A stretch of 64,000 bases of DNA from an uncultured Candidatus Saccharibacteria bacterium (GTDB taxonomy: Bacteria > Patescibacteriota > Minisyncoccia > UBA6257 > 2-01-FULL-56-20). The DNA lies in NCBI GenBank assembly GCA_964409535.1, contig CAYPDQ010000001.1:22993-86992 (forward strand), given 5' to 3'. The translations under genes and the position numbers were made by a program. The notes beneath the pieces were generated by a model that worked only from the letters and a program-made list of their open reading frames with translations, ran no database searches and was not told the DNA's origin. The first letter of the stretch is position 1. Every line of letters starts with the position of its first letter. This document shows, piece after piece, positions 2,388 to 63,229 of the stretch.

Positions 2388-3623
2388 ATGGGTCCTTCTC
2401 TTAAAAATAAAAAGTTTGTGGCGGGAAAAGATTGGATCTGGTACGCGCCGAACGGCGAGGACGCATTCGGTGATCCTGAAATAAGAGCCGTAACAGATAC
2501 CTTGAAAAAAGGGTGGCTTACAGTCGGAAGAGTAACGGCAGAATTCGAAAACAAAATCGCCCGCCTTTTTGGAAAGAAATACGGCCTTTTTACGAATTCC
2601 GGCTCCTCTGCAAATCTCTTGGCTTTTGCAGTCAGTGGATTTCCAAGGGGCAGCGAGGTGATCACTCCGGCGTGCAACTTCAACACGACAGTGGCGCCAA
2701 TCGTCCAAATGGGCCTGGTACCGGTATTCGTGGACGTAGAAATGGGAAGATACGTGATAGACCCTTCCGTGCTCAAGAAAGCTTTGTCCAAAAGAACCGT
2801 AGCGGTAATGGCGCCGCATCTCATTGGCAACTTCGTTGATCTTCAAAAAATCCGGTCTTTCACAAAGAGGCACGGTTTGGTTTTCATTGAAGACAGCTGC
2901 GACACCATCGGCGGCCTTTTCGACCGCAAAAGATCGGGTGCCTGGAGCGACATCACTACTACAAGTTTCTACGCTTCCCACATAATCACAACCGGCGGCG
3001 CTGGCGGAATGCTGATGACCAACGATAGGAATATAAGAGAAAGGGCCCGTGTTTTAAGGGATTGGGGAAGGGGGATTTCCCGGCACGACGAGAAAATCCG
3101 CTCTCGTCTTTCCACTTTCAGGATTGACGGGAAGCCATACGACAGCGCTTTCGTGTTCGTTGAGCAGGGCTATAATTTCAAACCTACGGAAATGCAAGCT
3201 GCCTTCGGACTGCAGCAACTAAGCCGTTTGTCTAAATTCGCCGGGATTCGCCGCCGTAACTTTAAAAAACTCTTCAACTTCTTCAAGCGGTTTGAAAATT
3301 ACTTTGTGCTGCCGCAAGAAACCCTCAATACCAAAACGAATTGGTTGGCCTTCCCCTTGACGGTAAGAAAATCAGCACCCTTCAAGCGGAACGAAATCGT
3401 CAAATACCTGGAAGACCGCAAAATTCAAACCCGCCCTCTTTTCTCGGGAAATATATTGAAACACCCGGCGTACAGGAACATAAAGCACCGAAGGGTAGGC
3501 AACCTGGAGAATTCGCAGTACATTCTTGAACAATCGTTTTTGATCGGTTTGCACCATGGCCTGAACGACAAAATGCTGGGGTATATGTTTGAGGTGTTCG
3601 ATAATTTTCTAAGTATAAAGTAA
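2388..3623 (+). CDS. DegT/DnrJ/EryC1-family PMP-dependent NDP-4-keto-6-deoxyhexose 3-dehydrase (E1; RfbH/DdhC-like)
   Basis: The frame is open from 2310, but a start at ATG 2388 (MGPSLKNKK...) avoids overlap with the upstream gene. The length (about 411 aa from ATG 2388; 437 for the full ORF from 2310) and the motif layout match the aminotransferase-fold class V family and the RfbH-type 3-dehydrases. Confidence 0.7.
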   Translation: MGPSLKNKKFVAGKDWIWYAPNGEDAFGDPEIRAVTDTLKKGWLTVGRVTAEFENKIARLFGKKYGLFTNSGSSANLLAFAVSGFPRGSEVITPACNFNTTVAPIVQMGLVPVFVDVEMGRYVIDPSVLKKALSKRTVAVMAPHLIGNFVDLQKIRSFTKRHGLVFIEDSCDTIGGLFDRKRSGAWSDITTTSFYASHIITTGGAGGMLMTNDRNIRERARVLRDWGRGISRHDEKIRSRLSTFRIDGKPYDSAFVFVEQGYNFKPTEMQAAFGLQQLSRLSKFAGIRRRNFKKLFNFFKRFENYFVLPQETLNTKTNWLAFPLTVRKSAPFKRNEIVKYLEDRKIQTRPLFSGNILKHPAYRNIKHRRVGNLENSQYILEQSFLIGLHHGLNDKMLGYMFEVFDNFLSIK

Positions 3624-3628
3624 ACAAG

Positions 3629-4561
3629 GTGAAAAAAATCCTGATAACAGGTGGGGCTGGTTTCGTCGGTTCCAACTTCGTTCACGCCCTTACCAAGTCG
3701 GGCGACGAGGTAAATTTAATTGTCAGACCCGAATCCGATCTTTGGCGGATAGAATCGGTCAAAAGCAAGTTGCAACTACACACCTTAGACCTGACCAAGG
3801 CCGAGGAGATAAAAGCATTCGTCGGCAACCTAAAACCGGAGATCATTCTGCATTTCGCAGCTTACGGAGCGTATCCCGGCAGGCCCGCTGACCCTCAAAC
3901 AATGATCTTGACGAACATATTAGGAACTGCAAACCTCTTGGAGGCGTGCGCGGAAACCGGATTTAAGTGCTTTATAAACACCGGCAGCAGTTCGGAATAC
4001 GGCGAAAAAGATCACCCAATTTCAGAAAAAGACTTGCTGGAACCGAACAACCTGTACGGGGTCAGTAAAGCCGCAGGCACCCTGTTCTGCCAGCTGATAG
4101 CAAGAAAAACTGGGTTGCCCATAATCACCGCGCGGCTTTTCTCTCCGTACGGTTATTTTGAAGAAGGCGGTCGTCTAATGCCGAACCTCGCTCAAGCCGC
4201 GCTTGGCGACAAAGAATTCAACGCTCTTTCCCCCGCCGCAGTGCGAGATTTCGTCTTCATAGAGGATGTTATAGATGCCTATATGAAAATGATTAATAGC
4301 CCAGATAGAATCAAGGGGCAGATTTTTAACATCGCATCCGGAAAGCAGTACTCTATCGCCGAGGTGGTCGCGGCAGTGGAAAAAATACTGAATAAGAAAA
4401 TACAAGTCACGTATGGGAAGGTGGAGGCAAAACAACGTGAGCCGAAAATGTGGGTTGCGGATATCTCTAAAGCAAGGGAGGTTCTCGGGTGGTCTCCCGC
4501 TCACTCCTTGGAAGACGGATTGCGCAAGTATATTACTTGGGCTGTCGAAACGAACTCATGA
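3629..4561 (+). CDS. NAD(P)-dependent epimerase/reductase, SDR family (CDP-paratose/abequose synthase-like)
   Basis: GTG start. ILITGGAGFVGSN Rossmann motif, about 310 aa. Its stop overlaps the next ATG (ATGA). Confidence 0.7.
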   Translation: MKKILITGGAGFVGSNFVHALTKSGDEVNLIVRPESDLWRIESVKSKLQLHTLDLTKAEEIKAFVGNLKPEIILHFAAYGAYPGRPADPQTMILTNILGTANLLEACAETGFKCFINTGSSSEYGEKDHPISEKDLLEPNNLYGVSKAAGTLFCQLIARKTGLPIITARLFSPYGYFEEGGRLMPNLAQAALGDKEFNALSPAAVRDFVFIEDVIDAYMKMINSPDRIKGQIFNIASGKQYSIAEVVAAVEKILNKKIQVTYGKVEAKQREPKMWVADISKAREVLGWSPAHSLEDGLRKYITWAVETNS

Positions 4562-12258: not shown

Positions 12259-13335
12259 CTAAAACTGCGGATTCCAAGGGATGAATCCCGATTGGTCGCC
12301 TGGATCGGGAATATAGCTGACATCGTCAAGAAGATCCAGGTTCTGGCCAAAATAATAATTCAGCAGAACGCGGAAAGTGTTAACCGGTGTTATGGAATCG
12401 TAAAGAAGCTTGTCTCCTCCATCGGGGAAATAATAGGCGTTAAGGATAGGAAGTGAGTTAATGCCCGGGACAATCAGCTTTTTGGCTCGATCCGGTTCAG
12501 CCAGATTTTTCAGCATATCCTCGTCGTTCGAGAAGCGAAAGCCGTGATCTCCCTGCAGTATTATGATAGGCTCGGGTTCGGAGCGTTCCAGCAACGTATC
12601 TACAAGCTTTACGACTTCTTTGTTGATATACGCTACCTGGCCAAGATAGTTTTCCACTGCGTTTCTCTCGGTGGCCTCTTTCCCTGTAACGAAGTTGCCG
12701 TCGGCGTCAAAAACGTACGGAGCATGAGGCAGTAAAAAGTGAGCGAATACGAAAACCGGAGCGCCTCTCTTCTCTGGAACTTCAGCAAGTTTCCGAAGTT
12801 GGAACTGCACTCTTTCCCACTGCAGGAACCGTCTGTCCAGAAATCTCATTTTCGCCGCGAAACGCACCTCGTTGTTCAGAAAATTTTCCACATGACTGAA
12901 TGCGGTATTTTCCCATACTGCCCATTGGTATGGAGAAAACAGGGTCAAATTTACGTTTTCATCCGCATATCGGTTGAAGTAAGTGAAAGCATCCGCCCCG
13001 AAGTGTAAATACCTGTATCCATAGTAACCCAAAAAGTCTTTAACTGCGTTATCCTCGACCATCTTCAAGTTGCTGTTTGACGCCTGTCGGCTTTGAAGAT
13101 AAATCATATTCAAAGAAGACGGTAGAGATAATCCGGTTGCGTAATAATTACTCAAGCTTTGCTTGGCCACAAAAAATCCCCTCTTTTCAAGCGAGGCCAC
13201 CATCTCATCCTCCTTCTCGAAACCCATTATTTGCCTTATAACGTCCGGCGAGGAGTATGCGTCCAGAATAATATAATATATGTCGCGGAGTTCGCCGACT
13301 GGACCGTTCAATACTACTTCAGCTCTAGCCGGCAA
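12259..13335 (-). CDS. Sulfatase / alkaline-phosphatase-superfamily domain (LtaS / phosphoglycerol-transferase-like), C-terminal part of a split gene
   Basis: 358 aa. It begins DIYYIILDAYSS, which is the metal-binding start of the sulfatase domain. No N-terminal membrane anchor lies in this frame. Confidence 0.6.
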   Translation of the reverse strand: MPARAEVVLNGPVGELRDIYYIILDAYSSPDVIRQIMGFEKEDEMVASLEKRGFFVAKQSLSNYYATGLSLPSSLNMIYLQSRQASNSNLKMVEDNAVKDFLGYYGYRYLHFGADAFTYFNRYADENVNLTLFSPYQWAVWENTAFSHVENFLNNEVRFAAKMRFLDRRFLQWERVQFQLRKLAEVPEKRGAPVFVFAHFLLPHAPYVFDADGNFVTGKEATERNAVENYLGQVAYINKEVVKLVDTLLERSEPEPIIILQGDHGFRFSNDEDMLKNLAEPDRAKKLIVPGINSLPILNAYYFPDGGDKLLYDSITPVNTFRVLLNYYFGQNLDLLDDVSYIPDPGDQSGFIPWNPQF

Positions 13336-23355: not shown

Positions 23356-23793
23356 GGGCGCTCGGCCTCGCGGCTCGTCGGGGTCGGCGTTGTTTTGCTC
23401 CCCGCCCGAAACGCTGCGCGTATCGCTGCGGGCGGGCAGCGGCAAAACCCACCTGTGTCCCTGCCTGCCGGCAGGCAGGTCGGCCAGCCGACCGAGCACA
23501 TAAGGAACTTATGTACTCGGACCAAGCTCAGCTTGGCCTGCGACACACCCCGCCGAGCCGCCAGGCCTCGCCGTACGGGAGCGCAGCCCCGCTTCCCGAG
23601 GTAACCTGAAGCGGAGGCGGCGTCAAAATGAAGGAGGGAGGCGAAGATTTTACGGTAAGGAAATTTGATGGTCCGATGGTTGCGAGGGGAACTGTCAAAT
23701 TTCCCCGTAAAATCGAGCCGAGCGACTGTCATTTTCGCCGCCGGAGCGGGTTCTGAGGGAAGCGGGGCGGAGCGGCTGTGGTAGAATAGAGCT

Positions 23794-26010: not shown

Positions 26011-26088
26011 GGGTCTTTGCCCGCGAGGACGAGTCCCTTGGCGGCGAAGTCCGAGCGTCGCAAACACCTTAATTTTAACAAAATTGGC

Positions 26089-27174
26089 ATGGATCCGTTT
26101 CTAAAAAACATCCTGGAATTCAACCGCCAGCTTACGACGGCCGGGCTCCAGCTCTCCAACCTCAAGCGGCTGAAAAAAGGCGGCTATGACTCCGTTCTCA
26201 TAGTCGGAATGGGCGGCTCTGGCCTCGCCGGCGAACTTCTGAAAGATGTGCAGGAGGAATTGGGACTCAAGGTTCCGGTTTTCACCTGGAAAGATTACGG
26301 CCTGCCCGAACCGGAAACGTTCGGTGCAAAGAAACCGCTCTACCTCTTCGTCTCTTTCTCCGGCAACACCGAAGAAACACTCTCCGGCTTCAAATCTGCT
26401 CTAAAACCTAAAACCTATAACCTAAAACCTCATTCCATTGCGGCCGTTGCCCACGGCGGCGAACTCGCCCGCCTCGCGAAGCGCGCGGGAGCACCACTGG
26501 TTCTCTTTCCGGCCGCAGATCCCGTTAGAAGTCCGACATTCGGCCCCGCGAATGTCGGCAGAAACCGGGGGTTTCTTACTTCTAACGGGACAGACTTGAA
26601 TCCCAGGCAATATACTGGTAGGATGTTCTACGCACTGATCCAAGTACTCCGGGCCGCCCGCCTTATTTCTTCCGAGCCGCAGACCTACATCCGGCTCCAA
26701 CCCGCGTCTTTCAAAAAGGAGGGTGCATATCTCGCCAAACGCCTTAAGGGCAGGGTCGTGCTCCTCTACACCGACCGGCGAAGCCATGGCCTGGGCTATG
26801 TCTGGAAAGCTAAATTAAACGAAACCGCAAAGCAGCTCGCTTTCCTGAACGCCGTGCCTGAGATGAACCACAACGAGCTCACCGGCCTTGTTTTCCCAAA
26901 AACCAAGCTGGCCGCGCTATTCATAAGCGATACGTCCGCCCCTGCGGCCGGGGCAGGGCGGACGCGGAAAAGAATCCGGATCAATCTCAAACTTTTAAAG
27001 AAGAAAGGGGTGCAAGCAGAGGAAGTTCCGCTCCAGGGCAAGAGCCGGATGGAGAAGATGTGGAATTCCATAATGCTCGCGGACTGGACCGCATACGAAC
27101 TTGCCAAGATGAACGGCGCGGACCCGGCGGAGATCAAAATAGTTGAAGAGTTGAAAAGTTCGATGAAAAAATAA
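26089..27174 (+). CDS. Bifunctional phosphoglucose/phosphomannose isomerase (SIS domains)
   Basis: Start chosen at the internal ATG (MDPFLKNIL). SIS motifs GMGGSGLAGE and SFSGNTEET. Contains a heptamer-repeat insert (LKPKTYNLKP). Confidence 0.7.
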   Translation: MDPFLKNILEFNRQLTTAGLQLSNLKRLKKGGYDSVLIVGMGGSGLAGELLKDVQEELGLKVPVFTWKDYGLPEPETFGAKKPLYLFVSFSGNTEETLSGFKSALKPKTYNLKPHSIAAVAHGGELARLAKRAGAPLVLFPAADPVRSPTFGPANVGRNRGFLTSNGTDLNPRQYTGRMFYALIQVLRAARLISSEPQTYIRLQPASFKKEGAYLAKRLKGRVVLLYTDRRSHGLGYVWKAKLNETAKQLAFLNAVPEMNHNELTGLVFPKTKLAALFISDTSAPAAGAGRTRKRIRINLKLLKKKGVQAEEVPLQGKSRMEKMWNSIMLADWTAYELAKMNGADPAEIKIVEELKSSMKK

Positions 27175-27278: not shown

Positions 27279-29030
27279 ATGATCAAAAAAACAATTAAAA
27301 CCAAAACGGTCTCTCCGCACGGGCGTCTGCACGTCAAGACGGCAAAGATAGCCGAAGACAAAGAGCCGCCGGTGCGCTGGGCGGCTTTGGGCGGCTTGGA
27401 GGAGATCGGCCGGAATATGATGTTCTTGGAGTACAAGAACGAGATCATCATAATTGACGTCGGCTTGCAATTCCCGGAGGAAGAAACACCCGGGGTGGAC
27501 TACATCATCCCCAACGTCTCTTATCTGGAGGCGAGGCGCGATAAGATCCGCGGCATCGTCATCACCCACGGCCACTACGACCACATCGGCGCCCTGCCCT
27601 ACGTTCTGGGGAAACTGGGCAACCCCCCGATATACGCCACCCAGCTCACCAAAGAAATAATCCTGAAGCGGCAGGAGGACTTCCCGAACATGCCCAAGCC
27701 GGTTTTCATCGTGGTCAAAGCCGGCGAGACCCACCAGCTTTCGGAACACTTCATCTTGGAGTTCTTCGCGGTGGAACACAACATTCCGGAGGGCGTAGGC
27801 ATGGTCGTAAGCACTCCGGCTGGCAAAGTTGTCCATCCCGGCGAGTTCAAATTTGACTACGACCGCGACGGCAAACCACGCAATATGGACGTCTGGGAAA
27901 ACGTCGGCAAGCAGGGCATCCACACCCTGTTCCTGGATTCCACCGGCGCGGAAGTCCCGGGTTGGTCCCTTTCCGAACGGGTGGTGGAAGAGGAGCTGGA
28001 GAAACTCTTCCGGGCGGCCAAGGGCAGGATAATCGTCGCGACTTTCGCCTCCCTCCTCGGCCGCATCGCGGAGATCGTGAAGATCGCCGAGCGTCTCGGC
28101 CGGCACATTGCTCTCTCCGGCTATTCCTTGAAAACCAACATGGATATCGCCTTGAGCTTGGGCTACGTCAAGGTAGAACAGGGTACCATAGTCCGGCTGG
28201 AAGACATCCACAAGTACCGGGATGACAAGCTCTTGATCCTCTCCACCGGCGCCCAGGGCGAACCGCGGGCAAGCCTGGTCCGGATCGCAAGCGGCGAGCA
28301 CAAACAGGTTACCTTAAAGAAAACGGATACCGTCATCCTTTCCTCGTCCATCGTCCCGGGGAACGAAGCCAGCGTCCAGATATTAAAGGACAATATCGCC
28401 CGCCAGTGCCCGAACGTTTTCCACTATAAGATGCTGGACATCCATTCGAGCGGCCACGCGCCGATAGAGGAATTAAAGACCGTGATGAAACTGGTGAAAC
28501 CGCATTTTTTCCTTCCGATCCACGGCTATTACTTTATGCGCATGCGGAACGCCCGCCACGCCCAGGAGGTCTTGGGACTGCCGCCGGAGAGAACCATCGT
28601 TGCCGACAACGGCCTAGTAGTAGAAATGCGCAAGGACAGGGTGGTGCTCACCGAAGAACAGGTGCCCGCCTCCTACGTGATGGTGGACGGCTTGGGTGTG
28701 GGCGACGTGGAAGAAGTCGTGCTGCGGGACCGCCGGAGCCTAGCCCAAGAGGGAATGGTCGTCGCCATCGTGACCATAGACCGCAACCGCGGCGGGCGTC
28801 TCCTAAAGAATCCGGACATCATCTCCCGCGGCTTCATCCTCCTCAAAGAGAACCAGGAAATTCTGGAAGGCATCCGCAAGCGCATCCGGGGCATCATTTC
28901 CCGCTTGCCCGCCCACCAGACAGTGGAACCGGACTATCTGAAGGCGCTCATCCGCGACCAGATCGGCCAGTTCCTTTATAACAAGACGAAACGCAGGCCG
29001 ATGATATTGCCCGTGGTTATAGAGATATAG
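27279..29030 (+). CDS. rnj: Ribonuclease J (metallo-beta-lactamase / beta-CASP)
   Basis: HGHYDHIG motif, beta-CASP and RMMBL regions. Start moved to ATG 27279 (MIKKTIKTK) so it does not overlap the tRNA. Confidence 0.85.
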   Translation: MIKKTIKTKTVSPHGRLHVKTAKIAEDKEPPVRWAALGGLEEIGRNMMFLEYKNEIIIIDVGLQFPEEETPGVDYIIPNVSYLEARRDKIRGIVITHGHYDHIGALPYVLGKLGNPPIYATQLTKEIILKRQEDFPNMPKPVFIVVKAGETHQLSEHFILEFFAVEHNIPEGVGMVVSTPAGKVVHPGEFKFDYDRDGKPRNMDVWENVGKQGIHTLFLDSTGAEVPGWSLSERVVEEELEKLFRAAKGRIIVATFASLLGRIAEIVKIAERLGRHIALSGYSLKTNMDIALSLGYVKVEQGTIVRLEDIHKYRDDKLLILSTGAQGEPRASLVRIASGEHKQVTLKKTDTVILSSSIVPGNEASVQILKDNIARQCPNVFHYKMLDIHSSGHAPIEELKTVMKLVKPHFFLPIHGYYFMRMRNARHAQEVLGLPPERTIVADNGLVVEMRKDRVVLTEEQVPASYVMVDGLGVGDVEEVVLRDRRSLAQEGMVVAIVTIDRNRGGRLLKNPDIISRGFILLKENQEILEGIRKRIRGIISRLPAHQTVEPDYLKALIRDQIGQFLYNKTKRRPMILPVVIEI

Positions 29031-32000
29031 CCAGCTTTACGCTTTTGCCGTTTATTCTTATCTCTTCCATGCCTGTCCCGACCTGCCCCGACTGAAACGT
29101 CGGGGCCGCAGCGTCGGGACTTTCGCCTTCGGAAACGCTCCGAAGGTAGGTTTTTTTACGGTCAAACAATTCCAGCGCTTTCTTAACGTCGGTGTCGTCG
29201 GTCTTATAGGTAAGCGCCGCCATTTCTCCCACCTTGAGTCCCTGCTTCTTGCGCAGTTCCTGAACTGCCCGTTCCAAAGCGCGCACCATACCTTCCAGGC
29301 GCAGCTCATCGGAAATCGAGGTGTCCAGATAGAAATTCAGAACCCGAGAGACCCCCGCCATCACTTCTATATTCTCCCCTTTCTCGCTCGAGAGGGTCGG
29401 GTCGAATTTCTTCACGTTCAACTCGCCCAAAAGTACCTGCATCAACTCCGCGCTGGGGGTCATATCTTCCTTGGTGAAGAACGCGAGGCGCGGCAGGGGC
29501 TGGCGCACCGGAACGTTCAGGGTTTTCCTCACCGCCTGGCCCAAGGACGCCGCTTCCCGGACGGTTGCCATATCCCGCAGGAGATCTTTCTCCTCCGGCG
29601 CAAGCTCTCTCGCTTCCGGCCAGTCCGAAAGATGCACCGATTCATCAGGTTTTAGGTTATAGGTTTTAGGTTTTAGATCCTGGTAGATAAGTTCGGAGAT
29701 ATACGGCATAACCGGTGCGATAACTTTGGAGGCGTTCAAAAGCGAGTGCCGCAGAACCGCGAAAAACTCCGTGTCCGTCCGGCCGCGGCTGCGGCGCAAG
29801 TACCAAGTGGAGAGATCGTCAACGTATTCGGAGATAATGCGCGTCGCGCGGACGGTATCGTATCGATCCAGATTTTCAGTCACTCCGTTAACTAACTCCT
29901 GGGTGCGTACGGCTATCCAGCGGTCAAGAATATTCGCGGTCTTCCCGGCCAAGCCGCCCGGCGGCGGCTCGTATCCCGCCTCCGCGGCGTATGTCTGATA
30001 ATAATTGAAGACGTTCCAGAGGATGAGGACCACCTTCCGGTACGTGTTCTGCACCTCTTTCTCGCTGAAGTTCAGATTATCCGCCTGCATCACCACCGAG
30101 TTCGTAAGATAGAAGCGCAACGCATCCACGCCGTATTTATTGATCACCTCCCACGGATCCGGGAAATTGCCTTTGGACTTGCTCATTTTGGAGCCGTCTT
30201 CGGCCAAAATCGTGCCGGTCGTGACCACGTTCTCAAACGGCGCCTTGCCGAAAAGGGCGTAGGAGACGACGTGCATCACGTAGAACCACGCCCGGGTCTG
30301 GGCGATGTATTCCGCCACGAACTGCGCCGGCAGGCGCTTGTCTCCCGACGCTCTCGGTCGGGACCCCGACTCCCGACTCGTCGGGACGTCGGGGAAAAAC
30401 TCCTTATTATCAAAAGGATAGTGATACTCCGCAAAGGGCATTGAGCCCGCTTCCACCCAGGAATCAAAGATTTCCTTTACCCGTCGCGCTTCCCCGCCGC
30501 AGGTCGGGCACTTTAAAACCACATCATCAATGTACGGCCGGTGGAGATCATCAATGCCCACGCTTATCTCAAACGGCTCTCCCGTCCTCGGATAGCCCAG
30601 CTCCGAGCCGTAGTACTTCTGGACCAACCACAGCGGGTCGCCATGGCCGACAATTAGAATCCTCTTGTTTTGGTAATTTTTATCCGCTTCCTTTATGAAG
30701 CTGACCATCCGCGCCTGGATCTCGGTCCATGTTTCCCCGCCCTCCGGCGCTTCCGTCCAACGGTCGCGTTTAGAAGCGAACTCTTCGTGATATTCTTTCT
30801 CACTCCTACCCTCAAAAGTGCCGGTGTTGTACTCCCGCAAGCGCTTGTCGGTCTTTGCCTCCACCCCAAGCACCTTGCCGACGATCTCGGCCGTACGCCT
30901 GGTTCTCAAAAAGTCGGAGGTGAATATTAGGTCCACGCCGCCCTTGGCCTTTATTTTCTCGGCAATTCCCTCCGCCTCTTTCACTCCTTTCTCCGTCAGA
31001 TCATATTTATCATTTTCTGTCCGTCCATTCACGACCTCCCGGACGTTCTTCTCCGCCTCTCCGTGGCGGGTGAAATAGAAAGTATTGGTGCTCAAGCCCA
31101 GTTCCTTAATGCTCCCCACCACAACCGGCGGGCAATTTTTATCACCTGCCTGCGCAGGCAGGCATTTCCAGACCGGAATCGGATTTCCCCAATAGCGGTT
31201 GCGGGAAATGTTCCAGTCCGGCGCGGATTCCACGCTTTTCTCATAGCGGCCGTGCTTCAAATGCTCCGGGAACCAGTTTATCTCCCTGGAGTTGGAGTCA
31301 ATCAGTTCTTTTTTCATCTTCTGGATGTTGATGAACCATGCCGGAATCGCATTGTAGTAGAGAGGATTGCCGCATCTCCAGCAGTGCGGATAGGAGTGGG
31401 TCACTTTTTCTTTGCGTAGAAGCAAGCCACGCTTCTCCAGGTCGGCGATTATGATTGAATCGGCATCTTTGAAATACTTGCCGCGCAGGAATTCCGGCGC
31501 CTTGTCGTTGAACTTGCCTCTGTCGTCCAGCATCGGCACGACCGGGAGCCCAACTTTCTGACCCAACTCGTAGTCCTCTTCGCCATAGACGACCGCAGTG
31601 TGCACGATGCCTGTGCCTTCCTCGGTGGAAACGAAGTCAGCTGCGTACACCTTAAAAGCGGCCTGCCCTTCGGAGCCTTGGCGAAGAATGGGGATGTCAA
31701 AAAGCGGTTCATACTCCAAACCGACGAGTTCCGAGCCCTTGAATTCTTCCACTATGTCATTGCGAGGCGCCGTAGGCACCGCGGCAATCCCTTGAGATTG
31801 TTTCCCGCCACTGCCCTGCATCGCGGTCGCAACGACGGCACTAACCCTATCTTTCGCTAAAATGTAAAACTCCTCCTCAACTCTAACTTTCACGTAATCA
31901 ATCTTTTCTCCCACCGCTAACGCAACGTTTCCAGGCAAGGTCCATGGTGTCGTAGTCCAAGCCAGAAGATAGGTGTTTGGTGTTAGGTTATAGGTTTTAG

Positions 32001-32643
32001 AATCACTTTTAACATTTGAGCTTTTAACCTTGAACTTCACAAAGACGGCGTCTTCCACGACGTCTTTGTATGAATTGTCCATCGCCACTTCAAAGTTGGA
32101 AACCGGCGTCTCGCATCTCGGGCAGTACATCAAAACCTTCCGGCCCTCGTACACCAGCCCTTTGTCGTAAATTTGCTTGAACGCCCACCAGACCGACTCC
32201 ATATAGTCCCTGTCCATCGTCTTGTAGGAGTTCTCAAAGTCAATCCAGCGCGCGATTCGCCGGACCATCTTCCCCCATTCGTCTGCGAACATAAGCACCT
32301 TCTCCCGGCAGGTGCGGTTGAATTTCTCTATCCCGATCTCTTCTATCTGCTTCTTGCCGGAGATGCCCAGTTCCCGCTCCACAACTTCTTCTATCGGCAG
32401 GCCGTGGCAGTCCCAGCCCCAGCGGCGACGGACGAAACGGCCCTTCATCGTCTGGTAGCGGGGAAAGAGGTCTTTGACGGTGGATGCCAAAATATGCCCG
32501 TAGTGCGGGAGGCCGGTAGCAAAAGGCGGCCCGTCGTAAAAAGTGTAGGGCTTGCCGCCTTTAGTCTTCTCTAATGACTTTTGGAAAACCCGGTTCTTTT
32601 CCCAGAAGTCCAGTATCTTTTCTTCCAGCTCTTTCGGATTCAT
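29017..32643 (-). CDS. ileS: Isoleucyl-tRNA synthetase (type 2, eukaryote-like) with an inserted histidine-phosphatase (PGAM-like) domain
   Basis: 1208 aa. HYGH/KMSKS class I motifs, editing domain and zinc-finger CPTCGG. An insert of about 170 aa with an RHGE His-phosphatase signature lies between ...VVVGSIKELG and GIDDLHRPY. Confidence 0.9.
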   Translation of the reverse strand: MNPKELEEKILDFWEKNRVFQKSLEKTKGGKPYTFYDGPPFATGLPHYGHILASTVKDLFPRYQTMKGRFVRRRWGWDCHGLPIEEVVERELGISGKKQIEEIGIEKFNRTCREKVLMFADEWGKMVRRIARWIDFENSYKTMDRDYMESVWWAFKQIYDKGLVYEGRKVLMYCPRCETPVSNFEVAMDNSYKDVVEDAVFVKFKVKSSNVKSDSKTYNLTPNTYLLAWTTTPWTLPGNVALAVGEKIDYVKVRVEEEFYILAKDRVSAVVATAMQGSGGKQSQGIAAVPTAPRNDIVEEFKGSELVGLEYEPLFDIPILRQGSEGQAAFKVYAADFVSTEEGTGIVHTAVVYGEEDYELGQKVGLPVVPMLDDRGKFNDKAPEFLRGKYFKDADSIIIADLEKRGLLLRKEKVTHSYPHCWRCGNPLYYNAIPAWFINIQKMKKELIDSNSREINWFPEHLKHGRYEKSVESAPDWNISRNRYWGNPIPVWKCLPAQAGDKNCPPVVVGSIKELGLSTNTFYFTRHGEAEKNVREVVNGRTENDKYDLTEKGVKEAEGIAEKIKAKGGVDLIFTSDFLRTRRTAEIVGKVLGVEAKTDKRLREYNTGTFEGRSEKEYHEEFASKRDRWTEAPEGGETWTEIQARMVSFIKEADKNYQNKRILIVGHGDPLWLVQKYYGSELGYPRTGEPFEISVGIDDLHRPYIDDVVLKCPTCGGEARRVKEIFDSWVEAGSMPFAEYHYPFDNKEFFPDVPTSRESGSRPRASGDKRLPAQFVAEYIAQTRAWFYVMHVVSYALFGKAPFENVVTTGTILAEDGSKMSKSKGNFPDPWEVINKYGVDALRFYLTNSVVMQADNLNFSEKEVQNTYRKVVLILWNVFNYYQTYAAEAGYEPPPGGLAGKTANILDRWIAVRTQELVNGVTENLDRYDTVRATRIISEYVDDLSTWYLRRSRGRTDTEFFAVLRHSLLNASKVIAPVMPYISELIYQDLKPKTYNLKPDESVHLSDWPEARELAPEEKDLLRDMATVREAASLGQAVRKTLNVPVRQPLPRLAFFTKEDMTPSAELMQVLLGELNVKKFDPTLSSEKGENIEVMAGVSRVLNFYLDTSISDELRLEGMVRALERAVQELRKKQGLKVGEMAALTYKTDDTDVKKALELFDRKKTYLRSVSEGESPDAAAPTFQSGQVGTGMEEIRINGKSVKLAISL

Positions 32644-32900
32644 CCCGTTAGAGACAGGAAACGCCTTAAGCGGTTCTCGAGGTAGCGTTTGCCTGGGCCA
32701 CTCTTTAGGTACTTTTCTCGCGACCTTGCGTCATCTTCATTGAGACACGCCTCGTAGTATACGAGGTTCCAGGGGGCACGGCTCTTAGTCCAGGTTGATT
32801 TGCCTTCGTTATGCTGCTTAAGACGTTTCCGTAAGTCGTTCGTGCTACCGGTGTACCAATAGCTGCTTTTCTTGCTTTGGATAACATAGGTGTAGTACAT
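32640..32900 (-). CDS. GIY-YIG nuclease-family protein (about 86 aa), bounded by terminal inverted repeats
   Basis: MYYTYVIQSKKSSYWYTGSTNDLRKRLKQHN is a canonical GIY-YIG motif. The frame is open up to GTG 32930. 14-bp inverted repeats ATCCCGTTAGAGAC lie at 32641-32655 and 32907-32921. Confidence 0.7.
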   Translation of the reverse strand: MYYTYVIQSKKSSYWYTGSTNDLRKRLKQHNEGKSTWTKSRAPWNLVYYEACLNEDDARSREKYLKSGPGKRYLENRLRRFLSLTG

Positions 32901-32921
32901 AAGCTTGCGGTCTCTAACGGG
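32641..32921. mobile_element. Small TIR-bounded element carrying the GIY-YIG ORF (putative founder of a MITE-like family)
   Basis: The left end TCATCCCGTTAGAGACAGGAAAC and the right end AAGCTTGCGGTCTCTAACGGGAT are inverted copies. The same ends recur without the ORF at 46780-46899, 51438-51512 and, degenerate, at 50906-50936. Confidence 0.55.
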
Positions 32922-32943
32922 ATTAAGCACGAATCTAAAAATA

Positions 32944-34707
32944 TCAGATTTTTTCCGGTGCGGAAATACCGAGGAGGCCGAGGCCGGTTTTCATAACACC
33001 GGCGGCTACGGCGACGAGCGCAAGCCGCGCCTCCCGCCTTTCCTTGTCTTCATCTTTGAGTATCGGCGTGGATTCATAGTAGGAATTAATCGCGTTCGCG
33101 AGTTCGTAGAGATAAACGGCGACGGCATTCGGGGCGCACGCCGCAGCCGCGGATTTCACTGCCTCCGGGAACTCCGCCATTTTCCTGATTAGCGCGAGTT
33201 CATTCTCTTCAATAAGGCGCGCTGCGTTCCACGTTCCACGTTCCACGCCCCGTGATTTGCGCAAGATACTGCGCAAACGTGCATAGGTGTATTGGAGATA
33301 CGGCCCGCTGTCACCCTGGAAAGAGATTGATTTGTCCATGTCAAAAACAATGTCCCGGCCGACGCCCTGTTTCAAGATGGAGTAACGGATGGCGGCCAGG
33401 GCCACTTTTTCTTCTATCTCTTCGCGTTCTCTTTTGGTAAGCTCCTTGCGTTCGGCTACTTTTTTAGCCACCGCTTCTTTCAGCTGGTCAATCAGCGCCT
33501 CCGCGGTGATAACCTCGCCGGTGCGGGAGGACATTTTACCCGAAGGTAAGCGCATCATGCCGTGGCTAAGATGGACTGTTTTCTCCGCCGCTTCCGGCAC
33601 TACCTGCTCCATCGCTTTCAAAACCACTCTGAAGTATTCATTGATTTCGTTTCCGGTCACGATAAACGATGCGTCCGGGTGATACAGGTCAAATTTTTTC
33701 TGGTTCAGTCCCAGCTCCTTGGCCTCATACGTCGGCAAGCCCTGGGAGTTTATAAACACTCTGTTGTGCAGGCCGTACTTCTCGCCGGGAAAGATAATCG
33801 CGCCTTCACTTTTTTGAAACACCTCCGGATGGGCCTTAACGAGCTTCACACCCACCGGTCCAACTTCGCTTTCAAAGAAATAATGGACGAACTTCGTGCC
33901 CAGCCGCCTATAAATCGTCTCAAAATAGTCTAAGCTCCACTTGCGGCCGAGATCGTATAATCTGTTTATTTCTTTGTCTGAACGGTTGTATACCTTGACG
34001 TTTATATCCTCCACTTGCTTCCTTAGCTCATCCTTATCTGGACCACCCCTCAAAGAACCGCTGATATCTTTCATATCGTAAGCGCCAGAGCCAACAGTAT
34101 ATGCATTAGCGAGATATCTTATTTTCTTATCTAGAGCGTCTCCTTTTCTGGGCAAGCTGCCTTGCAAAATATAGAGAATACCCCAAATGGTTTTAGCCAC
34201 ATGCAAACCAACGTCGCCCTGGTAATTCACGCGCAAGACCTTGGCCCCGGCGGCCTCGTGGAGGCGGGCGATGGCTTCGCCGATGACATTGGTCATGAGA
34301 TGCCCAATGTGAAACTGCTTGAACGGGTTGGGGTCGGTGTACTCCACCATCACTTTCTTGCCTTTGAGCAAATCCAGACGGCCATAATCGCGGCTTGCGG
34401 CAATCTGCGCGAACTCCTCTTGGATGGCTTTCTCCGACAGCCAAAAGTTTATGAATCCCGGCGGGGCGACCTGAACATTTTGAATAAATCTCTGCGGGGC
34501 GACTTTCCGGACTCTCTCCGCGATTTCTTCAGCCACCGCCATCGGGCTGCGGCCCTTTTCCTTGGCCAAACGCAAGGCGAGGTTCGTGGAGTAGTGGCCA
34601 AATTCAGATTTAGCAGCCAGAGACAAGTCAAAATCGGCATGTTTGCCTGCCTGCGCAGGCAGGCCTGCCGCCTTCTTCAAGAGTTGAGCAAGCTTTCGCC
34701 GTATCAC
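32944..34707 (-). CDS. argS: Arginyl-tRNA synthetase
   Basis: 587 aa with the HIGH-region (FHIGHLM), Add-1 N-domain and DALR anticodon-binding domain. Confidence 0.9.
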   Translation of the reverse strand: MIRRKLAQLLKKAAGLPAQAGKHADFDLSLAAKSEFGHYSTNLALRLAKEKGRSPMAVAEEIAERVRKVAPQRFIQNVQVAPPGFINFWLSEKAIQEEFAQIAASRDYGRLDLLKGKKVMVEYTDPNPFKQFHIGHLMTNVIGEAIARLHEAAGAKVLRVNYQGDVGLHVAKTIWGILYILQGSLPRKGDALDKKIRYLANAYTVGSGAYDMKDISGSLRGGPDKDELRKQVEDINVKVYNRSDKEINRLYDLGRKWSLDYFETIYRRLGTKFVHYFFESEVGPVGVKLVKAHPEVFQKSEGAIIFPGEKYGLHNRVFINSQGLPTYEAKELGLNQKKFDLYHPDASFIVTGNEINEYFRVVLKAMEQVVPEAAEKTVHLSHGMMRLPSGKMSSRTGEVITAEALIDQLKEAVAKKVAERKELTKREREEIEEKVALAAIRYSILKQGVGRDIVFDMDKSISFQGDSGPYLQYTYARLRSILRKSRGVERGTWNAARLIEENELALIRKMAEFPEAVKSAAAACAPNAVAVYLYELANAINSYYESTPILKDEDKERREARLALVAVAAGVMKTGLGLLGISAPEKI

Positions 34708-39525: not shown

Positions 39526-39587
39526 ACCTTAATTCTACCTCATCTAATATGAAGTCAAGCGAAGATGTGGATAAGCAGCTTTTTCAG

Positions 39588-39904
39588 TGGAGATGGGCGG
39601 AGTTGAACCGCCGTCTAAGGAAGTTATCGGAGAATCATCTACGAGCGTAGTTCGCCGAAAGCAAACGGAATGCCCCGCTAAGTTTAGTCCCGCGGTAGGC
39701 GGAGCCCTAACGTACGGAACGAGCCCCCTTGTATAAGACCGGGTTCCCGCTAAGAGACACAGCGAGACCGATCCTCCGGCTTAAGCGTAAGCGAACGCCG
39801 GAGCTGCAACTTTATTGTTGGCAGTTAATGTTTTGTGCGAGTTTTGCGCCATCGCGGGCGGCTCGCCGACTCCCGACTCTTCCTTATCGATGCCTTGCAT
39901 CCCC
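39588..39904 (-). ncRNA. ssrA: tmRNA (ssrA)
   Basis: The reverse complement begins GGGGAUGCAAGG and ends GACGGCGGUUCAACUCCGCCCAUCUCCA (T-arm GGCGG-UUCAACU-CCGCC). Acceptor pairing GGGGAUG/CAUCUCC. An internal ORF GCC AAC AAU AAA GUU GCA GCU CCG GCG UUC GCU UAC GCU UAA gives the tag ANNKVAAPAFAYA. smpB is 3.9 kb away. CCA is not encoded. Confidence 0.8.
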
Positions 39905-46454: not shown

Positions 46455-46782
46455 AGAAGATCAAGATTGGAAGAACGAGTATCCAGACAAGATACGCTGC
46501 GGCGAAGATCGCCGCCCAAAAAAGATACACGCCTACACCGATGATTATCCGCACGGAGCGGAAAATTACGCCCAAGACCCGGCCGATCACGGAGTAGTCC
46601 TTGTACAGGGGTTGGAAGAAGTGTTTCAGAGTTATTTTCACTGCAAATGTCCGGTCCAGATATTCCAAAAGAGCGGTGAACGCATAAGCAAATCGCCGGG
46701 AAGCGTCCACGTACCAATGGTGAAAGAAGTCGGTCAGCCGGAAGAAAAACCGCCCGACAAGATATACCAGGGCAAAGTCCAT
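46435..46782 (-). CDS. Hypothetical membrane protein (2-3 TM)
   Basis: Start taken at ATG 46780-46782 (MDFALVY...), which lies inside the left TIR of a MITE copy. Confidence 0.35.
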   Translation of the reverse strand: MDFALVYLVGRFFFRLTDFFHHWYVDASRRFAYAFTALLEYLDRTFAVKITLKHFFQPLYKDYSVIGRVLGVIFRSVRIIIGVGVYLFWAAIFAAAYLVWILVLPILIFYAFRSF

Positions 46783-46899
46783 CCCGTTAGAGGCAGGAAA
46801 CTTTCGTTTCCGAAGGTTTTGCAAGCCGGTGCGACCACGGCTGTTTCTCCGCCCTGTGCACTATTACCCCACACACAAGCTTGCGGTCTCTAACGGGAT
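46780..46899. mobile_element. MITE-like, ORF-less derivative of the GIY-YIG TIR element
   Basis: CATCCCGTTAGAGGCAGGAAAC ... AAGCTTGCGGTCTCTAACGGGAT. Both ends are nearly identical to the ends at 32641 and 32921, with about 75 bp of unrelated interior. Confidence 0.55.
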
Positions 46900-48370: not shown

Positions 48371-48409
48371 TGAGGCCAATTCGTGGGCGGCTCGCAGAGC
48401 CGCCCATTG
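48371..48409 (+). terminator. Terminator-like hairpin (10-bp perfect stem TGGGCGGCTC/GAGCCGCCCA, loop GCAG, then TTGATTTTG)
   Basis: Perfect inverted repeat followed by a T-rich tract, in the AT-rich noncoding region left of the recombinase. Confidence 0.3.
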
Positions 48410-48675: not shown

Positions 48676-50206
48676 ATGGAAAATATTTCACCGCAAAAAT
48701 TCTTTTTGTACGCCCGCAAGTCCACCGATGTTGAGGACAAACAAGTTTTGTCCATTGAGGCCCAACTAACAGAATTGCGCGCCTTTGCAAAAACAGAAGG
48801 GCTAAATGTCTTTGAGGAATTTGTGGAGAAGCAAAGCGCGAAAATTCCCGGCCGCCCCATTTTCAATTCCATGCTCAACCGGATTGAGAGAGGTGAAGCT
48901 AACGGCATAGTTTGTTGGAACCCCGACAGATTGGCGCGCAATTCTGTTGACGGTGGACGAATAATTTATCTTTTGGACTGCGGGCGTATTGTTGCGCTCA
49001 AGTTTCCAACGTTCTGGTACGAAAATACCGCGCAAGGAAAATTTATGCTCAATATCGCTTTTGGGTAAAGCAAATACTACATTGATTCACTTTCGGAAAA
49101 TGTAAAGCGTGGGTTGCGCCAAAAAGTAAGACGCGGAGAATATCCTGGCCTTGCGGCAGTGGGATATATCAATGACCCACGCACTAAAACTGTTGTGGTA
49201 GATAGAAAAAAATCAGTGGTAATTCGCAAGGCCTTTGAGTTATACGCGCAAAACGGCTCGCGCCTTGAAGATGTTTCAAATTTTTTGGCGCAACAAGGCA
49301 TTACCACGTCAGGCGACAAGAAGCTTCACCGAGACAGAATTTCTTTTATCCTTTCCAACCCTTTTTACTATGGACACTTTCGTTATGCCGGCGAAATTCA
49401 CGAAGGAAAGCACCAGCCAGTCATCTCAAAGAAAATTTTTGATAAAGTCCAAGAAGTTTTACGGCAAAGAGGAAGGTCGATGAAAGCCAAATGGGAGCCG
49501 CAAGCTCTGTGCGGGATTTTGAAATGCGGAACTTGCGGCATGAGCATTACCGGCGAATACAAGGTTAAGAAGCAGAAAAATGGCAATGTTCACGAGTATG
49601 TCTATTATCACTGCTCCAAACGCTCTAAAATTATGAAATGTCCCGAACCTTGTATTCGCCAAGAAGAACTGGACAACCAGCTTTCCTCTTTACTACAAAA
49701 ATTTTCTTTGAGAGCAGATTGGGCGGAACAAATGAACACGATGCTTGAAAAAGACAAAAAGGAATCCGCCCAATTCTGCACCGCTTTTGTTCAAGAAGCG
49801 AGCACCAAAATCCAAAGTATCAAAGTTAAGCTCCAGCGACTTTTAGACGGCTATCTTGAGCAAGTCATCGAGCAAGAAGTTTACAGAACAGAAAAAGCTA
49901 AACTTCTCTCCGAGAAAAAGTCGCTGGAGGAACAAATCACCAATCTTGAACAAAAGCGGACTGGCTGGTTAGAACCTATGGAGAATTGGATAAAAGAGGC
50001 AAGTTCCTTGCCTAAAATCGCACAAGAGAGCAACCTTTTTGCTAAAAAGGTTGCCTACCGAACTTTGTTCGGTTCGAACCTCATTCTGCACAACCGCGAG
50101 GCGCGGCTTGTCGCGCCGAGCAGAGAGGATTTGTCGGGGGAAAACGCTTGGGCGGCACTTCGTGCCGCCCATCAAATCGCTTCAAAAAAGCCTTTCAGTT
50201 TTGTAG
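48676..50206 (+). pseudogene. Large serine recombinase (resolvase catalytic domain, recombinase domain and zinc ribbon) interrupted by an in-frame TAA
   Basis: The N-terminal ORF (48676-49068) has the catalytic Ser motif YARKST and ends ...NIAFG-TAA. The same frame continues SKYYIDSLSENVKRGL... into the recombinase and Zn-ribbon domains (CGTCG...HCSKRSKIMKC). The frame then runs on through the tRNA with no natural stop. Confidence 0.65.
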
Positions 50207-50298: not shown

Positions 50299-51417
50299 CT
50301 AATTTACTACAAAGTAATAGACTTCGTAAACCGCGCCGAGGATGAAGACGAGTACCAGGAGATTGACCAGAAGCTTTTGGGCCGCGCTGAACGCAAGCGC
50401 ACGCTTACCCACGAGGAGGATCAGGAGGTACTCCAAGCCAAGGAACACGCCCCCGGCAAGACCGAGAACCTTCAAAAAATCGCCGAAGCCCGCGAGCAAG
50501 AGAAGAGGCGGCAAGAGAAACACCACCGCCGCAGCCAAAAGCCGCGAAGAGCCGAGGTCGTGAACCAGAGAGTTTCTTATCTCCAAGCCAATAGGGATGT
50601 AAGAAGTCCAGATAGCGAAAAACCCCAGAACCACGACCGACAGAAATTTCCACGCTGGCCACTCTCCCAGCCCGCTTACCGTGTCCGGCGTGACCGCAGA
50701 GATAGTTCCAAGTACACCCACGACGAAAAGAAGGTACAAGAAAGCAGCCGCGTAAATCCCTGCGGTCATTGCCCTGCGGGAACTCCCGGACGCCTGCCCC
50801 GCGCGTTTGCTGTAATCGAACGCGGGCTCCACCGCCGTCCAGGCGGCAAGCGAGAAAAGAACCGGGCCGAACGGCAGGAAAATCTCTTTCCAATTGATCG
50901 CCGCGAATCCCGTTAGAGAGTTTTTCTCTAATGGAACGAAAACGCCGAAGAAAACCAAGCCGATTATAAGCGCCATCATCACTGCGCCGAGGAATTCGGA
51001 GAACAAAAGCCGCCGCAGGCCCAAGAGAATGGGGAGTGAACCTGCAAGCCAGAAGAGGAACGTTCCCAAAGTTCTCGTGCCGGGACGGAGGAGTTCGGAA
51101 AATTCCCCGGCGAGTATAAGATAAGTGACGAGCGCCAAGGTCAGGCCTCCGATTATGACCACAACTCCGAAAATCCTCCCGCCAGTCCCAAAATATCTCG
51201 CCGTGAGTCCCAGAAGGCGCTTACTCCCGCCATCCGCCTCCAAAACCCGATAGTACAGGGAGTGGGCGAAGGACAAGAAAAATGCGATTACCGTGAGGTA
51301 CAAGACGCCAAGGAGCCAGCCCGACCGGAGAAACACGTAGGGTAAGGAAAAAAGACCTGCGCCAACCGCGGTCGCTGCGACCAGCACCGCTATCCACACG
51401 AAACGTCCTACTTTCAT
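50299..51417 (-). CDS. APC-superfamily-like amino-acid permease (10-11 TM)
   Basis: 372 aa, polytopic. Contains an in-frame copy of the TIR motif (PLEKNSLTGF) at 50906-50936. Confidence 0.45.
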   Translation of the reverse strand: MKVGRFVWIAVLVAATAVGAGLFSLPYVFLRSGWLLGVLYLTVIAFFLSFAHSLYYRVLEADGGSKRLLGLTARYFGTGGRIFGVVVIIGGLTLALVTYLILAGEFSELLRPGTRTLGTFLFWLAGSLPILLGLRRLLFSEFLGAVMMALIIGLVFFGVFVPLEKNSLTGFAAINWKEIFLPFGPVLFSLAAWTAVEPAFDYSKRAGQASGSSRRAMTAGIYAAAFLYLLFVVGVLGTISAVTPDTVSGLGEWPAWKFLSVVVLGFFAIWTSYIPIGLEIRNSLVHDLGSSRLLAAAVVFLLPPLLLLAGFGDFLKVLGLAGGVFLGLEYLLILLVGKRALAFSAAQKLLVNLLVLVFILGAVYEVYYFVVN

Positions 51418-51437: not shown

Positions 51438-51512
51438 ATCCCGTTAGAGGCAGCCCGCCCTAAAGGCCCCTCCGGGGCGCGCTTGCGCGCGGGCTCGGCC
51501 TCTAAACGGGAT
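51438..51512. mobile_element. MITE-like copy of the TIR element (75 bp)
   Basis: ATCCCGTTAGAGGC ... GCCTCTAAACGGGAT flanking a GC-rich palindromic interior. Confidence 0.45.
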
Positions 51513-62961: not shown

Positions 62962-62972
62962 ACTTTTTTACA

Positions 62973-63001
62973 CCTTGACAATAAGTGATTTATATGCTAA
63001 G
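62973..63001 (+). promoter_or_regulatory. Candidate sigma70-type promoter (TTGACA-17-TAAGAT)
   Basis: Near-consensus -35 and -10 hexamers with 17-bp spacing in the ruvB-pilB intergenic region. No plus-strand CDS lies downstream. Confidence 0.3.
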
Positions 63002-63229
63002 ATGTCTGCCGTTAACGTTGCCGGCCCAAACCTGGGGGCAGGAATTGTTTTATGTTAAGGACGGCTTGGTTTCGGCGAAGCCGCTCCTCGAAGCAATTCT
63101 AACCTCTTTTAACTACGTTAAAAAGAGACCCTTCTATCCCCGTTTATTCGGGAATAGCCCCCAGATCTGGTCCGGCAATCCCGACGTTTTGGTCGGCACC
63201 CCGACCTCCACAAGGAGCGTCGGGGTTTC

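Follow-up and report, generated by a model that had tools for sequence, protein, structure and literature searches.

In-frame hairpin repeats in the ileS gene of a Candidatus Saccharibacteria bacterium, with a tRNA-linked GIY-YIG nuclease as their probable mobiliser

The F3 palindrome family studied here was found in a 64,000-nt stretch of DNA from an uncultured Candidatus Saccharibacteria bacterium (assembly GCA_964409535.1, contig CAYPDQ010000001.1, positions 22,993 to 86,992), the whole of which is called the window below. Its three compound copies, E1, E2 and E3, were located twice within the coding sequence of ileS and once in an intergenic region. The F3 elements are likely to be GC-rich hairpin repeats, very small and non-autonomous, of one kind with the repetitive extragenic palindromes (REPs) and the Rickettsia palindromic elements (RPEs), with a GIY-YIG nuclease resembling the Ssn proteins as the inferred mobiliser. 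The best reading of an individual F3 copy is that of a REP/RPE-like selfish palindrome, which would be read through after insertion into a gene. E1, E2 and E3 have no demonstrated host function.

The F3 unit consists of two related hairpins with 7-bp stems, hairpin B (CCCCGAC..GTCGGGG) and hairpin A (TCCCGAC..GTCGGGA), which stand in tandem in E2 and E3 and are nested in E1 and within the loop of the B hairpin of E2. Single hairpins cover 16–31 nt with a GC-rich 7-bp stem, and the three compound copies in 64 kb are the following:

E1, positions 29075–29120, minus strand: nested form near the 3′ end of ileS, with an A-type stem GTCCCGAC/GTCGGGAC around the B-type hairpin CCCCGAC gtttca GTCGGGG.

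E2, positions 30343–30394, minus strand: inside ileS, with hairpin B followed directly by hairpin A on the coding strand.

E3, positions 63178–63226, minus strand: intergenic tandem of B and A, beginning 4 nt past the stop codon of a pilB-like ATPase gene (63230–63949, minus strand).

On the forward strand, E1 reads GTCCCGAC ctg CCCCGAC tgaaac GTCGGGG ccgcagc GTCGGGAC and codes for most of SPDAAAPTFQSGQVGT, about residues 1175–1190 of IleS. The coding strand of E2 carries hairpin B, CCCCGAC g (TCCCGAC ga GTCGGGA) GTCGGGG, with the small A-type hairpin nested in its loop, and hairpin A, TCCCGAC cgagagc GTCGGGA; the forward strand accordingly shows TCCCGAC gctctcg GTCGGGA and then CCCCGAC t CCCGAC tc GTCGGG ac GTCGGGG. 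This copy codes for PDVPTSRESGSRPRASG, residues 751–767 of IleS. On its minus strand, E3 consists of CCCCGAC gctccttgtggag GTCGGGG and then TGCCGAC caaaac GTCGGGA, with one mismatch in the A stem. Stop codons are absent from all six frames of E2 and E3, and E1 has a single one in an unused frame.

A previous sequence-only reading of this DNA had described F3 as a palindromic-repeat family, with the reservation that its half-sites might simply be frequent hexamers, and the four sequences that it cited were all located at the positions it gave. The window does contain 40 copies of the CCCGAC hexamer, a number in line with expectation (44.3 ± 6.6) and without enrichment, so an origin of the clusters by chance from a frequent hexamer, or as an artefact of replication slippage or assembly, had to be considered. 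The clustering and the pairing of the half-sites were, however, far above the shuffled controls. Three clusters of CCGAC/GTCGG (4, 6 and 4 units) were present, against a mean of 0.47 clusters of at least three units in 200 dinucleotide shuffles, and the tandem B+A pattern occurred twice in the window and never in 100 shuffles. The folding energies of the three copies on both strands lay between −31 and −37 kcal/mol (z from −3.5 to −5.3; at most 1 in 200 shuffles equal), with −34.8 kcal/mol (z −5.3) for E1, −36.7/−37.2 for E2 and −30.9/−31.8 for E3. Since clustering and pairing exceed the shuffles in this way, a common hexamer does not account for E1–E3. The unit, together with a conserved flank, also recurs in at least 120 independent contigs, and the shuffle controls and the metagenome scan described below leave the chance or artefact explanation refuted, with a negligible residual probability. 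F3 therefore stands as a genuine family, in which the compound structure is enriched and the hexamer is not.

The gene that carries two of the three copies is the following:

ileS, positions 29017–32643, minus strand: an open reading frame (ORF) of 1208 codons with class I tRNA ligase domains and an inserted His_Phos_1 domain (Pfam), host of E1 and E2.

Among genome bins, the best matches of this IleS protein carry Doudnabacteria, Liptonbacteria and Saccharibacteria labels (57–72% identity), and the nearest proteins in a large collection are 77% identical by BLASTP and 81–82% identical in alignment. When 78 IleS orthologues from related loci were aligned, the 17 codons of E2 were missing from every orthologue covering the site, and the corresponding residues PDVPTSRESGSRPRASG were also missing from the eight closest proteins (68–82% identity). 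The earlier proposal of an extra peptide SRESGSRPRASGDKRLP at this position was thus correct as to the insert and too generous as to its extent: the inserted residues are exactly PDVPTSRESGSRPRASG, while DKRLP belongs to the native sequence. At E1, about 16 residues, SPDAAAPTFQSGQVGT, are missing from the closest relatives, so both ileS copies proved to be extra with respect to the orthologues. Codon alignment with the DNA of the related loci L081 and L082 displayed clean inserts of 51 nt (E2) and 48 nt (E1, measured relative to L081), the boundaries of which coincide with the hairpins to within 1 nt on each side. No duplicated flank was found at E1 or E2 in comparison with the empty sites of L081 and L082, and clusters like E1–E3 were absent from 685 kb of sequence from 82 related loci. 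E1 and E2 are DNA insertions made of hairpins alone, without flanking duplication. An element of the MITE class, with terminal inverted repeats and a target-site duplication, was also considered and rejected, as there is no flank duplication and the insert equals the hairpins. Both copies were seen to have landed in what, from the alignment, appear to be poorly conserved, insert-tolerant stretches of ileS. Given these sites, together with insert lengths that are multiples of three and stop-free stems, ileS would be read through with a gain of 16–17 residues. The earlier statement that F3 can sit in frame in coding DNA was therefore borne out twice, both times in ileS, beside one intergenic copy after the pilB-like gene.

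The distribution of the unit outside the window was examined by a scan of metagenome contigs with the pattern CCCGAC N1-30 GTCGGGG T N CCGAC N4-10 GTCGG, which fits E2 and E3. The B+A unit is widespread in these data: at least 120 contigs carry the pattern, where few chance matches are expected by a rough estimate. The proportions that follow refer to the matches listed. The contigs have a GC content of 30–59%, while the unit itself stays GC-rich. The bases before the first stem, which lie outside the search pattern, are conserved in 118 copies as A (83%), G/A (90%) and C (97%), and the free position of stem A covaries with its partner (C-G in 107 copies, T-A in 7, G-C in 1). Approximately 45% of the units (55 of 121) lie inside stop-free ORFs of at least 150 codons, and those within ORFs of at least 250 codons occur in both orientations and in all three frames. 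In DnaK, the insert PRRPDGVGVPTEASG is present in two contigs and missing from a third; RF2 and UvrA also carry in-frame units, with insert-free homologues alongside. Nested forms like those of E1 and E2 were recognised in the metagenome loci L085, L119 and L162, with the nested form of E1 itself in L119. The presence of both orientations and all frames, with the reading frame kept open, argues for insertion at the level of DNA and not for an oriented RNA signal.

These data also bear on the view that the hairpins are host-selected signals that evolved in place, as stabilisers of mRNA 3′ ends, terminators or protein-binding sites. Such a role could be suggested by the location of E3 only 4 nt past the pilB-like stop codon, where REP-like hairpins can stabilise transcripts, and by the compensatory changes that keep the stems paired. 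On the other side, two of the three window copies lie inside an essential coding sequence and are missing from the orthologues, the copies in ORFs show no preferred orientation or frame, and the recurrence of the unit in contigs of such different GC content is more readily explained by spread than by local selection. The interval 62900–63300 contained no terminator-like site on either strand, and E3 as an intrinsic terminator was rejected because no T-run follows its hairpin. A host-selected origin is accordingly regarded as improbable.

The surroundings of the units pointed to a possible source of their mobility. Among the matches listed, about one fifth of the units have GTAGC before them and CTCA(G/A) after them. 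These flanks belong to a tRNA gene, as its first 11 and next 5–8 bases, and the same tRNA is usually present in an intact copy a short distance downstream of the unit. The space between the tRNA fragment and the intact tRNA is occupied either by a short spacer or by an ORF of 87–89 codons starting MAxVYIL...YYIGST. The encoded protein matches Pfam PF01541 (GIY-YIG) and otherwise only weakly T5orf172, and its nearest solved structures are those of the single-domain UPF0213 proteins; searches of NCBIfam and PDB gave no placement of the cassette proteins in the Ssn family, with no assignment at all from NCBIfam. When the ORFs within 400 nt of the units were clustered for the 120 loci listed, GIY-YIG was the sole family present in more than three loci (10 loci), and neither a REP-associated tyrosine transposase (RAYT) nor any other transposase formed a recurring family within that distance.

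Because these first loci had been picked for their hairpins, the GIY-YIG family was sampled again independently: five homologues were chosen by protein similarity alone and their contigs retrieved. In all five loci the B+A unit lay 10–15 nt upstream of the nuclease start codon; a tRNA 5′ fragment with TAG as its last bases preceded the hairpins, and the nuclease gene was followed by an intact tRNA-Asn or tRNA-Val. In three of the five, the nuclease gene uses as its stop codon the TAG in the GTAGCTCA of the tRNA, and in one locus (L209) an A-type hairpin was located downstream of the nuclease gene as well. Seven further cases of a nuclease gene flanked by B+A were present among the hairpin-selected loci. 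B+A is therefore the constant 5′ module of a cassette with the order tRNA fragment (ending in TAG), B+A, GIY-YIG gene, intact tRNA, and there is good support for the tie of the B+A unit to a minimal GIY-YIG nuclease located at tRNA genes.

In two of the metagenome loci, L168 (4448–4700) and L107 (with the B+A match at 12736–12771, minus strand), tandem tRNA genes were observed with a degenerate second copy that carries B+A in its D-arm; the degenerate copy of L168 has a second two-hairpin unit after the anticodon loop. Units inside tRNA-gene copies, and the very stable RNA hairpins predicted on the coding strand, are what might be expected if the inserts were intervening sequences removed from RNA, either as mini-introns or as hairpins excised by RNase III, and left untranslated. 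The length of both ileS inserts, a multiple of three, and their freedom from stop codons in the reading frame are contrary to such removal; a strand-specific RNA signal would be lost in the ORF copies of either orientation, and most tRNA copies with a unit are 5′ fragments beside an intact tRNA. Removal from RNA thus appears very improbable, more so than a host-selected signal. No known RNA family covered the F3 units in an Rfam scan of the window and 20 metagenome loci; the matches in the window were a tmRNA and one tRNA only (ARAGORN lists two tRNAs), and those in the 20 metagenome loci were tRNAs only.

The GTAG- and CGTC-tagged REPs described by Di Nocera et al. (2013; PMC3733652) are GC-rich stem-loops of small size that often form dimers. 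They are mostly located just downstream of genes, and some are found in frame in housekeeping genes, including uvrA, dnaE and aminoacyl-tRNA synthetase genes, where they add 20–30 residues (PMC3733652). The CGTC REPs, among them the Neisseria dRS3 and the Rickettsia RPE-4/6 elements, have no dedicated transposase (PMC3733652). F3 resembles REPs and bacterial interspersed mosaic elements in being short, GC-rich, dimeric and scattered, and in its in-frame positions in housekeeping genes. It differs from them in that both tags, GTAG and CGTC, are absent from the window copies and no RAYT gene was found near the units, that the hairpins are in tandem or nested and not, as is usual for REP dimers, inverted, and that the host is a genome of the Patescibacteria, a group outside the 2013 survey.

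Elements of the IS200/IS605 type have hairpins as their recognised ends, insert without target duplication and have a short conserved sequence 5′ of the insertion. F3 shares with them the hairpin units, the missing target duplication and the conserved 5′ flank; it differs in that neither an HUH/Y1 transposase nor TnpB is associated with it and in that its units are far smaller and consist of hairpins only. It could accordingly be proposed that F3 elements are classical REPs, moved by a RAYT or by an IS200/IS605-type tyrosine (Y1/HUH) transposase acting on single-stranded DNA hairpins, and that the presence of GIY-YIG genes is incidental. The size, the GC-rich stem, the dimer organisation and the existence of intragenic REPs (PMC3733652) are in agreement with this proposal, as are the inserts without target duplication. 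The 5′ flank of the metagenome copies, t-A-(G/A)-C across 118 copies, contains TAG in part of them and resembles the GTAG tag. However, the full GTAG was present in only 23 of the 121 copies listed, where it is derived from the tRNA D-arm, and in none of the window copies. Furthermore, the ORFs within 400 nt of the 120 units listed include GIY-YIG as a recurring family but no transposase-like one, and the adjacency of GIY-YIG was complete (5 of 5) in the unbiased sample. Transposase-driven REPs are therefore considered unlikely, if still the least unlikely of the rival explanations.

The closest model for the preferred reading, in which F3 would be mobilised by a GIY-YIG nuclease, is provided by the Ssn proteins, single-domain GIY-YIG proteins of about 94 residues (CDD cd10448), the genes of which are flanked by their own hairpin repeats (NTS/SRM) and which act as nucleases on single-stranded DNA, with the cut just upstream of the hairpin (Chenal et al. 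2025; PMC11893778). The authors likened this repeat-gene-repeat layout to an insertion sequence, found NTS to be rarely intragenic (2%), and made no mention of Patescibacteria or tRNA (PMC11893778). The F3 system likewise has a single-domain GIY-YIG gene of about 90 codons beside its own hairpin repeat, and this repeat is also present in many copies elsewhere; in both systems the repeat has a conserved, oriented 5′ flank. The F3 system differs in the position of its cassette, inserted in the 5′ portion of tRNA genes, and in the common occurrence of its units inside ORFs. On this comparison, F3 is probably mobilised by a Ssn-like GIY-YIG nuclease. By analogy with Ssn and NTS, the nuclease would bind the hairpin on single-stranded DNA and cut just upstream of it, with the conserved TA(G/A)^C flank as the putative cut site, and such a cut would be the first step by which hairpin units are copied or inserted at new sites. 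The D-arm region of a tRNA gene, with GTAG and a small hairpin of its own, could mimic the cut site and so serve as the preferred home of the cassette, and solo units such as E1–E3 would be by-products or relics of the nuclease activity.

A bolder version of this mechanism is offered only tentatively, as a possibility that we hold to be clearly less probable than the general reading. The B+A dimer might be the recognised end of a previously undescribed mobile element driven by the minimal GIY-YIG nuclease, in which a cut in single-stranded DNA at TAG^C beside the hairpin would lead to homing to the GTAG-CTCA D-arm region. The interrupted tRNA might be rebuilt by the carried 5′ copy, which would also supply the stop codon of the nuclease gene, and hairpin units open in six frames might be shed into essential proteins across the Patescibacteria.

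Several observations weigh against a GIY-YIG-driven spread of F3 or limit its generality. The flanks 5′ of the window units are TTTC, AAAC and AAAG, so that the TAG flank common elsewhere is absent, and no cognate tRNA-linked GIY-YIG cassette is present in the 64-kb window. The GIY-YIG gene that lies in the window is 33–38% identical to the tRNA-linked subfamily and has a different flanking repeat, ATCCCGTTAGAGAC. The published SRM motif, HGTCWYN(0-2)YYVSBRHN(0-5)WNVSBRGN(0-2)RNCYNB, written as a regular expression, gave no match in E1–E3 or in the rest of the window, under conditions in which the NTS control matched. GIY-YIG enzymes are hydrolytic nucleases, and we know of no transposition chemistry for them. 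Selection by fixed stems leaves stem variability out of sight in the metagenome set, and its contigs were counted without contig-by-contig taxonomy. The empty sites come from relatives at orthologue distance and not from same-site polymorphism among close strains. Finally, it is from the reading frame and the absent stop codons that we infer the translation of the E1 and E2 inserts.

The window gene just mentioned has the following position:

GIY-YIG gene, positions 32640–32900, minus strand: 86 codons (MYYTYVIQS...YTGST), between argS and ileS.

A perfect inverted repeat of 14 bp, ATCCCGTTAGAGAC, stands on either side of it, at 32643–32656 and 32909–32922, and the downstream copy of this repeat supplies the ATG of ileS. 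The gene is absent from the syntenic relative L082, its homologues (74–88% identical) are distributed across many Patescibacteria lineages, and in L211 this gene, again with these repeats, was located in a different gene neighbourhood. The gene with its repeats looks like a mobile cassette. The TCCCGTTAGA repeat, which flanks this gene, has further copies at 26520–26590, 46782–46898, 50908–50932 and 51439–51448. The first of these, of 71 nt, encloses two internal hairpins, one of them with CCGAC/GTCGG stems, between perfect 13-bp ends and lies in frame in the ORF 26017–27174, where it is read as DPVRSPTFGPANVGRNRGFLTSNGT; the syntenic counterpart of this ORF in L082 has a bact-PGI_C (phosphoglucose isomerase) domain. 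A hairpin CTATCCCCG tttatt CGGGAATAG at 63135–63158 adjoins E3 in the same spacer and has ends similar to the GIY-YIG cassette's ATCCCG...CGGGAT repeat.

Other inserts were observed in ileS itself. The His_Phos_1 (histidine phosphatase) domain, at 30616–31077 (residues 523–676), is present in nearly all of the 120 best IleS homologues and is therefore a clade-wide trait and not peculiar to the window genome. The palindrome CCTGCCTGCGCAGGCAGG at 31144–31161 corresponds to a six-residue insert, LPAQAG, missing from the closest orthologues, and near-identical palindromes at 34645–34664 and 23460–23479 make it look like a separate palindrome family. At 31768–31821 there is a window-specific insert of 18 residues, MQGSGGKQSQGIAAVPTA, with no obvious strong palindrome. 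The ileS gene of a Doudnabacteria bin (L039) contains, at about 3622–3669 and only a few codons from the E2 site, a 48-nt in-frame nested hairpin, ETPPSSPPIRGGNRGG (CCCCCCC ttcat CCCCCCC tataa GGGGGGG aaaca GGGGGGG), and this nested architecture with a different stem indicates that other stem families exist. Elsewhere in the window, the hairpins at 48384–48406 and 50149–50171, the second just downstream of tRNA-Arg, have the common stem TGGGCGGC/GCCGCCCA and may be terminators or another repeat family.

The presence of F3 inside a structured RNA had also been proposed, on the basis of a 14-mer shared between E2 and the tmRNA gene, which is located as follows:

tmRNA gene, positions 39585–39904, minus strand.

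This part of the earlier proposal did not hold. By alignment to the Rfam model, the 14-mer at 39865–39878 is the native 5′ strand of tmRNA helix P2, with no insertion there. The tmRNA of L082 aligns with it base for base (GAGTCGAGAATCGG, against GAGTCGGGAGTCGG in the window), with two substitutions and no extra bases. As there are no extra bases and no inverted partner is present near the 14-mer, it was rejected as a member of F3, and the match with E2 is best treated as coincidental. In this respect F3 differs from the RPEs, which, as Ogata and colleagues are said to have described in 2000, lie both within protein-coding genes and within the gene for tmRNA. In other respects the two are alike, each being a selfish palindrome in frame in an essential gene, missing from the orthologues and read through, although F3 is much shorter than RPE-1 and shows no sequence relationship to the RPEs. 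A functional analogy, between unrelated hosts and unrelated sequences, can also be drawn with the GC clusters and double-hairpin elements of fungal mitochondria, GC-rich palindromes of 30–50 bp that are often nested and occur in coding and RNA genes; in both cases GC-rich palindromic units inhabit a genome of different composition, and the mobilising enzyme is unclear.

F3 is, then, an ordinary kind of object of the REP/RPE type, present in a group of bacteria for which no specific report of palindromic inserts or of GIY-YIG/tRNA cassettes was found in the literature; the organisms that bear the cassette also lie outside the coverage of the Ssn paper. Since the discovery of the Rickettsia RPEs, a standing question has been by what route small palindromic repeats enter essential genes. 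Here one and the same hairpin dimer was found in two settings, as in-frame inserts in ileS, DnaK, UvrA and RF2 and as the front module of a nuclease cassette, and its position as the front end of a tiny nuclease gene hints at how such repeats spread. In Patescibacteria genomes, both protein alignments and gene calls are inflated and distorted by inserts of the F3 type. The tie to GIY-YIG and tRNA genes makes the mechanism of spreading testable, the more so as filled and empty sites exist in nature. If the proposal of a mobile element driven by a GIY-YIG nuclease is true, it would provide the long-missing mobilising enzyme for REP- and RPE-like repeats that lack a RAYT.

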